Position numbers and translations under genes: made by a program
Notes under the pieces: generated by a model
Databases searched by the model: none
Told to the model about the DNA's origin: nothing
What the model saw: the letters and a program-made list of their open reading frames with translations, nothing else
Origin: Negaprion brevirostris
Lineage: Eukaryota
Length of the DNA stretch: 64,000 nt
Direction: 5' to 3'
NCBI GenBank assembly: GCA_030324005.1
Contig: JARDVH010000106.1
Span: forward strand, 53,615,774 to 53,679,773
Shown: one piece after another, positions 7,400 through 8,075 of the stretch
Numbering within the stretch: position 1 is the first letter of the stretch
How the letters are laid out: every line of letters starts with the position of its first letter

Positions 7400-8075
7400 C
7401 TTCTTTCCCCCAACTGGCAGTTGAGGCCTCATCGAAATCCGTTTTGCACGAGGTCGGGGGGCAGATTTGCGGATTTCCCGTGACCACACCTGTTCCACGG
7501 ACACTGATCTCCCATTCATTCAAGGAAAGGCTGCCAGATCTGGCGTCAACACCCGCGCGNNNNNNNNNNNNCTTTATCCGCCCGCGCGCAACTTCGGGGG
7601 AACCGTTAAACTGAGGTTTAACTCGATTCATATTGGCACTCAATAACACCCGACTGAGGAAACATCCTCGTCCCCTTTCGATAGAAATATTATCAATTTT
7701 GTTTCGGAGAGTTTCTAGACTGGAGTAATAATTTAAACAGTACCGTGTCGCACCTCACGGGACGGCCGGGGGGGGGGGGGGCGCCAATGGTGCTTTGGGC
7801 CGTATAACGATTCAGCGACGTGCATTACAATTAAATGAGTCAGAAGGCAAATCTACGACTATTTATAGCTAATGCTTACATCCCATTCAAAAGTGACCAA
7901 TCCATGGATTTTCCCACTGTCTTCCTCAGCTGGATCACCATTCAGCATACAAGTTCCTGTTGCTATCATCCTTAGCTCTACCTTCACCGACGGCCGTATG
8001 TAACTGCGCATGCACCTCACTCTAAGCCACCCCCCGCACGCGCGGCGCATATGCGTTTCAAACTCTCCGCCTACT
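7400..8075. promoter_or_regulatory. CpG-rich island around paralog c exon 1, with an NRF1-like site at 8005-8014
   Basis: Visibly high CpG density against the depleted background. TGCGCATGCA lies about 36 nt upstream of the ATG, with a GC-rich CGCACGCGCGGCGCATATGCG tract further upstream. Confidence 0.6.
7880..7969 (-). CDS. SOD1-like paralog c, exon 1 (90 nt): MIATGTCMLNGDPAEEDSGKIHGLVTFEWD
   Basis: Inside ORF 7859..8050. The pattern CxLxGD...GKIHGLVTFE matches CVLKGDGPVQGIINFE. Phase-0 donor GAT|GTAAGC at the homologous position, within a CpG-rich island. Exons 2-5 were not found in 1-7879. Confidence 0.8.

Follow-up and report, generated by a model that had tools for sequence, protein, structure and literature searches.

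Organisation of the SOD1 array

The window, i.e. the whole stretch of 64,000 nucleotides from Negaprion brevirostris analysed here, carries part of a head-to-tail array of five SOD1-type genes on the minus strand. The copies are numbered by gene order on that strand (copies 1 to 5 bear the tree labels a, c, b, d and e, respectively; copy 3 is paralog b of the sequence-only reading, an earlier description of the window made from its letters). Negative coordinates denote the extension to the left of the window, and the position on the contig (G000:C106) is 53615773 plus the coordinate. The array was found by a genome search with PF00080 and then with exon profiles built from the other copies.

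Copy 1 is the canonical SOD1 gene (48421..64000, minus strand; exons 57440-57347, 54835-54766, 49065-48948 and 48531-48421). Its exon 1 (64700-64635 on the extended scale) falls immediately beyond the right edge of the window, and the catalytic residues of this copy are all intact. Copy 2 (32594..46707, minus strand; exons 46707-46639, 38339-38246, 36250-36181, 35334-35217 and 32740-32594) has retained all four copper histidines as well as the zinc site and shows the exchanges C57W, R143G and C146W; it thus carries Trp at positions 57 and 146 besides Gly143, and ends in an acidic C-terminal tail. Among the proteins retrieved it occurred in sharks only. Copy 3 (9801..23012, minus strand; exons 23012-22899, 22191-22098, 18716-18647, 16798-16681 and 9920-9801) possesses a 14-residue insert in loop I together with H48C, C57Y, H120Q, R143G and C146W. 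Copy 5 (-22683..-69096, minus strand; exons of 75, 97, 70 and 118 nt plus a last exon) shows H120N, R143G and C146W and is 94% identical to a Mustelus protein.

Copy 4, the fourth gene of the array, has its first exon in the window (coding part 7880..7969, minus strand). It had been suggested that the array continues beyond the left edge and that SOD1-type exons of 94, 70 and 118 nt should be sought there. Exons of exactly these sizes were found, and with them a complete fifth copy. Exons 2 to 5 of copy 4 lie 5.9-18.2 kb left of the window on the minus strand and have AG/GT ends and an open frame of 160 codons: exon 2 (-5941..-6034, 94 nt) encodes H46Y, H48C and D52N, exon 3 (-10158..-10227, 70 nt; locus L002) C57Y, H63 and H71, exon 4 (-16303..-16420, 118 nt) H80 and D83, and exon 5 (-17990..-18203) H120T, R143G, C146W and the stop codon. 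A poly(A) signal, AATAAA, follows at -18682 on the same strand. The gene therefore comprises five exons of SOD1 sizes and four introns with GT-AG sites. Exon 5 contains a run of N; judged by the lengths of the contigs, its coding sequence is nevertheless complete. Intron 1 is 13,820 nt long and its part within the window (1..7879, minus strand) is free of SOD exons in an nhmmer search with profiles of exons 1-5, in line with the sequence-only reading, which recognised no later exons there. The same reading described this part as mostly Gypsy and CR1 sequence; in a scan of 14 open reading frames a single reverse-transcriptase fragment was recognised (2348-2599, E 8.8e-06).

A scan of the flanks, apart from runs of N, over about 90 kb to the left of copy 5 and 60 kb to the right of the window showed known exons only and no sixth copy. 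Beyond copy 5, in convergent orientation, lies a gene (G000:C106:53490890-53491063, L011-L012) that encodes a CID domain and has exons rich in RS or in proline; we take it to be SCAF4, the neighbour of human SOD1. If this identity holds, the site of the array would be the ancestral SOD1 locus.

Exon 1 and promoter region of copy 4

The coding part of exon 1 consists of 30 codons and ends in phase 0. As previously described, the minus strand of 7880-7969 encodes 30 residues followed by a GT donor (7874..7879, minus strand), and the ATG lies 1,832 nt past the stop codon of copy 3, in agreement with the earlier figure of about 1.8 kb. With 90 nt the exon is longer than that of canonical SOD1 (66 nt), owing to two additional N-terminal residues and six in loop I. 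The six-residue insert, also reported before, corresponds to 7916..7933 (minus strand), its exact placement in the loop depending on the alignment. The exon-1 peptide alone gave no Pfam match. When it was extended by the 10 codons upstream and used as a protein query, three candidates emerged, none of them scoring. That exon 1 is more than a chance resemblance follows from splicing of its donor to exon 2 in four of four runs and from the presence of the same exon in database orthologs from 17 other species.

Transcript-like contigs of related species cover a 5' UTR at 7970..8005 (minus strand), individual pieces reaching 7981, 7987, 7996 and 8005. Directly next to it lies the motif GCGCATG (8006..8012, no strand assigned), a match which we take to be an NRF1-like element. 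The promoter, exon 1 and the start of intron 1 are contained in a CpG island (7420..8070, no strand assigned) with a GC content of 0.51 and a CpG observed/expected ratio of 1.07, compared with 0.25 across the 214-kb region; the claim of a CpG island was thus borne out. Elements of the GCGCATG type, presumably NRF1-like as well, are located just upstream of the ATGs of copies 2-5 (window positions 46746, 23057, 23098 and 8006, and -22567 in the extension). Five of the eight matches in the 214-kb region lie at most 125 nt upstream of these ATGs, and each of the elements upstream of copies 2-5 sits in a CpG-rich stretch.

Transcripts and skipping of exon 3

The evidence for splicing comes from transcript-like contigs of related species that are 95-99% alike, taken from runs without an RNA record (4 of 8 listed runs, from 2 organisms and 2 studies). 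It had been proposed to look for spliced products of the donor at 7880. Contigs in four of four runs leave the genomic sequence exactly there and continue into exon 2, with an exact match over the 30 letters past the donor. Two of them, of 926 and 931 nt, extend to about 10 nt from the AATAAA signal. The exon 1-exon 2 junction in the contigs of the relatives rules out an orphan exon.

Three contigs (X3, X5 and X6, from two related species) reach from exon 2 to exon 4, and none of them contains exon 3. In X3 exon 1 and exon 4 are only 94 nt apart, and in X5 and X6 the distance from exon 1 to the final part of exon 5 is 224 nt (93+118+13); exon 3 had no cover in this set, which also included the DNA-like run X4. 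Skipping was deduced from the contig coordinates because contig joints were swamped by repeats. The skipped form is frameshifted and encodes a product of 94 residues without zinc ligands. Nonsense-mediated decay follows a 50-nt rule; the stop codon of the skipped form lies 17 nt before the last junction in copy 4 (35-110 nt in the other four copies), so that the transcript might escape decay. Exon 3 may still be included in some transcripts of copy 4, since minor variants are lost from contigs and since one contig, X1, ends exactly at the end of exon 2, which is what a branch would cause. The case for such transcripts rests on database models of other species, which include exon 3, and on the conservation of this exon, whose two zinc histidines are invariant.

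Five database models from three shark species (P0002, P0009, P0112, P0302 and P0303) join exons of neighbouring copies, for example exons 1-4 of copy 3 in frame with exons 2-5 of copy 4. Either splicing that reads through from one copy to the next or errors of annotation may account for them.

Orthologs and phylogenetic analysis

Orthologs of copy 4 were found in 17 other species, sharks, rays and a chimaera included. A search with exon 4 as query returned 42 proteins, and 26 of the top 28 were named from sharks, rays or Callorhinchus; further orthologs were obtained from a profile search (best 120 of 7,049 matches) and from cluster look-ups. The motif Gly143/Trp146 was present in 30 of 144 proteins, all of them chondrichthyan, while 103 showed the normal Arg/Cys and 11 were truncated or had other residues. 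Among a further 144 cluster representatives from a whole-library search, a similar Trp was seen in three unnamed multi-domain proteins only. Judged from these top matches, Gly143/Trp146 copies are likely to be confined to cartilaginous fish. In the proteins P0044 (Anopheles) and P0049 (Stylophora) a second SOD domain lacks His120, apparently through independent loss.

The phylogenetic tree comprised 51 rows after exclusion of three chimeric or truncated models. Copies 2-5 grouped in a single clade, separate from the SOD1 sequences of insects, of bony vertebrates and of cartilaginous fish themselves (support 100/95), and within it all 12 copy-4 rows grouped together with the chimaera in basal position (100/96). 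Copy 3 likewise has an ortholog in the chimaera, as does copy 5 (or the ancestor of copies 2 and 5). The array is therefore older than the split between chimaeras and sharks, which dates back about 400 million years. Neighbouring accession numbers suggest that Callorhinchus and Chiloscyllium share the tandem order.

A sister relationship of copies 3 and 4, as implied by the sequence-only reading, held in part: it was recovered with all columns (100/94) and with exons 1-2 without the insert columns (97/92), but dissolved in exons 3-5 and when active-site and loop-I columns were removed. A grouping of copy 4 with copy 5 in exons 1-2 was rejected (p-AU 0.028). These trees neither show nor exclude that copy 4 is a mosaic whose exons 1-2 resemble those of copy 3 and whose exons 3-5 resemble those of copy 5.

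Copy 4 is conserved nearly as well as the SOD1 enzyme. Identity to the copy of this genome, given for copy 4 and SOD1 in turn, was 71 and 73% in the chimaera, 79 and 85% in Heptranchias, 75 and 79% in Rhinoraja, and 77 and 85% in Pristis. Within copy 4, conservation is lowest in exon 1 (55% versus 70-89% in the others), and exon 4 is more conserved in copy 4 (89%) than in SOD1 (78%), the two values referring to different species sets. NG86 estimates of dN/dS among the five paralogs of this genome (0.20-0.60) were set aside because they mix an early burst of change with later constraint.

Active site and loop I

Residue numbers are those of human SOD1, carried through the 154-residue rodent SOD1 in the alignment, and ligand identities follow a figure legend of PMC13017621. 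Counts refer to 18 copy-4 rows, one per species, of which three were trimmed for aberrant tails, leaving 15 at full length.

The zinc ligands H63, H71, H80 and D83 are present in all 18 rows. Residues 46, 48, 57, 120, 143 and 146, singled out earlier as worth reading, are Y, C, Y, T, G and W in this genome, and the copper-ligand positions 46, 48, 63 and 120 are Y, C, H and T. Position 46 is Tyr in 17 rows and His in one (chimaera). Position 48 is Cys in 12, Ser in 5 and Leu in 1, and His in none. Cys57 is found in one of the 18 rows, and the Cys57-Cys146 disulfide is gone. T120, G143 and W146 each occur in 15 of 15 full-length rows, and His120 in none of them. Asp52 is replaced by Asn throughout (18/18). 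Of the dimer-interface positions G51, D52, G114, G150 and I151, the glycines are invariant (G51 and G114 in 18/18, G150 in 15/15), Asp124 is kept, and a conserved Cys67 is new. The loss of the copper site differs between the copies: four copper histidines are retained in copy 2, three or four in copy 5, two in copy 3 and one in copy 4. G143 is common to all four extra paralog groups, and W146 to all but copy 3 of the chimaera. The latter protein (P0052, Callorhinchus) has retained Cys146, as opposed to Trp146 in all other full-length paralog rows, which implies reversal, convergence or gene conversion.

Across 14 copy-4 rows 91 columns are invariant, and 22 columns invariant in all 14 are absent or almost absent from 16 SOD1 rows. 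Most of these copy-4-specific columns fall in segments 1-4, 22-28 and 100-109, away from the active site.

Loop I had been put forward as a hotspot of diversification. The loop of copy 4 does vary in length, from +3 to +7 residues among orthologs (+6 here, compared with +14 in copy 3), and contains 2-6 acidic residues in elasmobranchs and one in the chimaera. Copies 2 and 5, however, are insert-free, so that no more than one insertion is needed, placed in the common ancestor of copies 3 and 4. The insert is real but loosely conserved, and copy 4 probably shares it with copy 3 by inheritance. In the alignment it looks like a tolerant loop, the conserved signal being the loss of the copper site. 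It is the least conserved feature of copy 4; what stands out from the aligned residues is the conserved dismantling of the active site.

Structure models and the dimer face

An AlphaFold2 model of the whale-shark ortholog of copy 4 (mean pLDDT 89) showed the eight-stranded SOD barrel and superimposed on human SOD1 with a TM score of 0.92 and an rmsd of 1.5 A. It was weakest at residues 51-60, the former disulfide loop. Exon 4 of copy 4 passes the Pfam cut-off for PF00080. A model of Heptranchias SOD1 paired with its copy-4 ortholog reached an ipSAE of 0.90, the best of three controls scoring 0.00, with 100% contact agreement between runs and a partner pLDDT of at least 88. Of 78 solved complexes 51 attain the mark applied to the model score, as do 2 of 108 mismatched pairs (71 of 105 and 2 of 126 for eukaryotes). 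Because SOD1 dimers have already been solved, the pass shows likeness of the interface rather than binding by copy 4.

Relation to known SOD-like proteins

Copy 4 is a direct tandem descendant of SOD1 at the SOD1 locus and shares with it the five-exon layout, intron phases, fold, zinc site, Asp124 and dimer-face glycines. It differs by the lack of His46, His48, His120, Arg143 and the Cys57-Cys146 disulfide, by Asp52Asn and by the loop-I insert, and is predicted to be inactive. By sequence and modelled fold it is a member of the Cu/Zn SOD fold family but lacks three defining features of the enzyme.

Domain II of the copper chaperone CCS resembles SOD1, has an intact zinc site and a disabled copper site, and works by docking on SOD1 (PMC13017621). 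Copy 4, by contrast, is a stand-alone domain of 160 residues that has neither an ATX1-like domain I nor a CXC domain III. MXCXXC and C-terminal CXC motifs were found neither in copy 4 nor in the proteins retrieved for this comparison, and CCS is encoded at a separate locus in this genome. Moreover, human CCS has lost one copper histidine and keeps the disulfide, whereas copy 4 has lost three plus the disulfide. The leporipoxviruses myxoma and Shope fibroma virus encode pseudo-SODs, catalytically inert Cu/Zn SOD homologs that regulate SOD1 (PMC7605207). They are viral proteins acting against the host, and CCS binding was shown there, while the inertness of copy 4 is predicted from its residues. 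By analogy copy 4 may work like CCS domain II or the poxviral pseudo-SODs, although it belongs to neither.

YojM of Bacillus subtilis is SOD-like with a disrupted copper site, as is copy 4, and in a cysteine-less SOD of Paenibacillus hydrophobic contacts replace the disulfide (PMC10432803). Unlike what is predicted for copy 4, this bacterial protein keeps copper and is fully active (PMC10432803), so loss of the disulfide alone need not abolish activity. For the same reason copy 2, with its four copper histidines, may retain some activity or bind copper; its residues are possibly those of a copper-binding non-enzyme. CSRP/SOD4, which is present in sharks, and the fungal Cu-only SODs are derivatives of the Cu/Zn SOD fold that have lost one metal site (PMC13017621, PMC10416458). 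They are a mirror image of copy 4: copper is kept and zinc lost, the proteins are extracellular, and the domain is repeated in CSRP, while copy 4 has kept its zinc ligands, has no leader peptide and consists of one domain.

Vertebrates are usually credited with one cytosolic SOD1, and databases name the genes described here automatically as 'superoxide dismutase [Cu-Zn]-like'. Full-text searches of the openly accessible literature, most of them directed at SOD genes of cartilaginous fish, yielded no description of the array. Term searches of the text of PMC13017621, PMC10416458, PMC8455134 and PMC11979771 gave none either; the main texts of the catshark paper (PMC11979771) and the whale-shark genome paper (PMC8455134) do not mention superoxide or SOD1. 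The 2026 review PMC13017621, which is devoted to SOD derivatives, deals with CCS, Cu-only SODs and CSRP, and a term search of its text gave no stand-alone Zn-only class from animals.

Possible function of copy 4

We are confident that copy 4 is a conserved gene whose product is predicted to lack dismutase activity. Such activity is very unlikely given that at most one or two copper histidines, no Arg143 and no disulfide are present. A single lost copper histidine is sufficient to silence domain II of human CCS (PMC13017621), and Arg143 binds the incoming substrate (PMC8247289). Copy 4 is likely a Zn-only SOD1 pseudoenzyme kept by selection. The features that selection has preserved, namely the zinc site, the barrel and the glycines of the dimer face, suggest a binding protein with an intact fold.

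Our preferred interpretation, which as a whole mechanism we put forward with slightly more doubt than belief, is that copy 4 pairs with SOD1-type subunits as a dimer partner without catalytic function. On this view a tandem SOD1 duplicate would have lost Arg143 before the split of chimaeras and sharks and then expanded to four genes, and these SOD1-derived copies would have shed the copper site to differing degrees. In copy 4 zinc binding would hold the fold, and aromatic residues at 57 and 146 may substitute for the disulfide. Through the retained dimer face the protein might dimerise with itself, with sister paralogs or with SOD1. Such dimers would tune the maturation or activity of SOD1 in cells that include exon 3; elsewhere, skipping of exon 3 would switch copy 4 off. 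The invariant residues specific to copy 4 could, on the other hand, serve another partner, and the skipped form in three of three contigs and the altered CCS-recognition motif speak against a simple story. An extended version, that the array is an ancient SOD1 control module in which all four copies pair with SOD1 or CCS and set superoxide levels tissue-specifically, copy 4 being toggled by splicing of exon 3, is conceivable but rather unlikely.

Copy 4 might instead be a Zn-only pseudoenzyme with an unrelated partner or a structural role, independent of SOD1 regulation and mediated by a new surface made of the N-terminus, loop II and the Greek-key loop. We regard this as unlikely. The 22 copy-4-specific invariant columns agree with it, as their main segments, 1-4, 22-28 and 100-109, presumably lie together at one end of the barrel, and so do the higher conservation of exon 4 in copy 4 than in SOD1 (different species sets, as noted) and D52N, which changes the standard recognition tetrad. 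Invariant dimer-face glycines and the heterodimer model, which passes by likeness, tell against it. A role of this new surface is compatible with the dimer-partner interpretation.

That copy 4 is an endogenous decoy of CCS, mimicking immature, Zn-bound and disulfide-free SOD1 so as to trap CCS and lower SOD1 activation, is in our estimate improbable. It is true that CCS binds Zn-loaded H46R/H48Q/C146S SOD1 with a KD of about 114 nM and ignores mature SOD1 (PMC6018003), that copy 4 is altered at the same three residues (46, 48 and 146), that poxviral pseudo-SODs sequester CCS (PMC7605207), and that the genome has a CCS last exon with the CXC motif. However, the GDNT motif read by CCS arginines is altered at Asp52 in 18 of 18 copy-4 rows, and the large side chains of Tyr57 and Trp146 may keep the loop closed. 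A role in buffering or carrying zinc, or a new enzymatic chemistry that does without copper at the opened site, is more improbable still: invariant zinc ligands and conserved T120, Y46 and the new Cys67 would fit, but one zinc per 160 residues would make a poor store, and the variation at position 48 leaves no fixed ligand there. A transcribed but decaying pseudogene or orphan exon, as might be suspected from the frameshifted, exon-3-skipped transcripts in all three informative contigs and from numerous irregular database isoforms, is highly improbable and largely refuted by the open frame here, complete models from 14 other species, identities of 71-83% that extend as far as the chimaera, 91 invariant columns in 14 rows, and the contrast with genuine SOD1 pseudogenes elsewhere in the genome (L016 and L017), which show frameshifts or stops.

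Up to four dismantled SOD1 copies seem to have been retained throughout an entire vertebrate class, and selection on them seems to be about as strong as that on the enzyme. To treat these shark genes as added antioxidant capacity is probably wrong. Should the control-module version be true, they would represent natural, stable forms of the zinc-only, disulfide-free state that is prone to misfolding in human SOD1. If the fold is stable without copper and disulfide, it would show how the ALS-linked immature state of SOD1 can be stabilised naturally, by Tyr or Trp at 57 and Trp146, and the copies would allow a direct test of whether endogenous pseudo-SODs, known from poxviruses, act as SOD1 regulators in animals.

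Other SOD-family loci

Other PF00080 matches in the genome were rejected as members of the array. Two are intronless, broken retrocopies of SOD1 (L016:4831-5059 and L017:4959-5310) and L018 is a SOD3-like gene. L019:190-303 and L020:5129-5293 are isolated SOD-like exons on other contigs, one of them with His120, Arg143 and Cys146 intact. The last exon of CCS with its CXC motif was located at L036 (G000:C190, near 505,950-506,050); the remaining CCS exons were not found within 40 kb of surrounding sequence rich in N, and an HMA family search of the genome did not locate domain I. Finally, two SOD-like domains in a single open frame of 713 residues (G000:C124:13908053-13909384) likely represent the CSRP/SOD4 gene.
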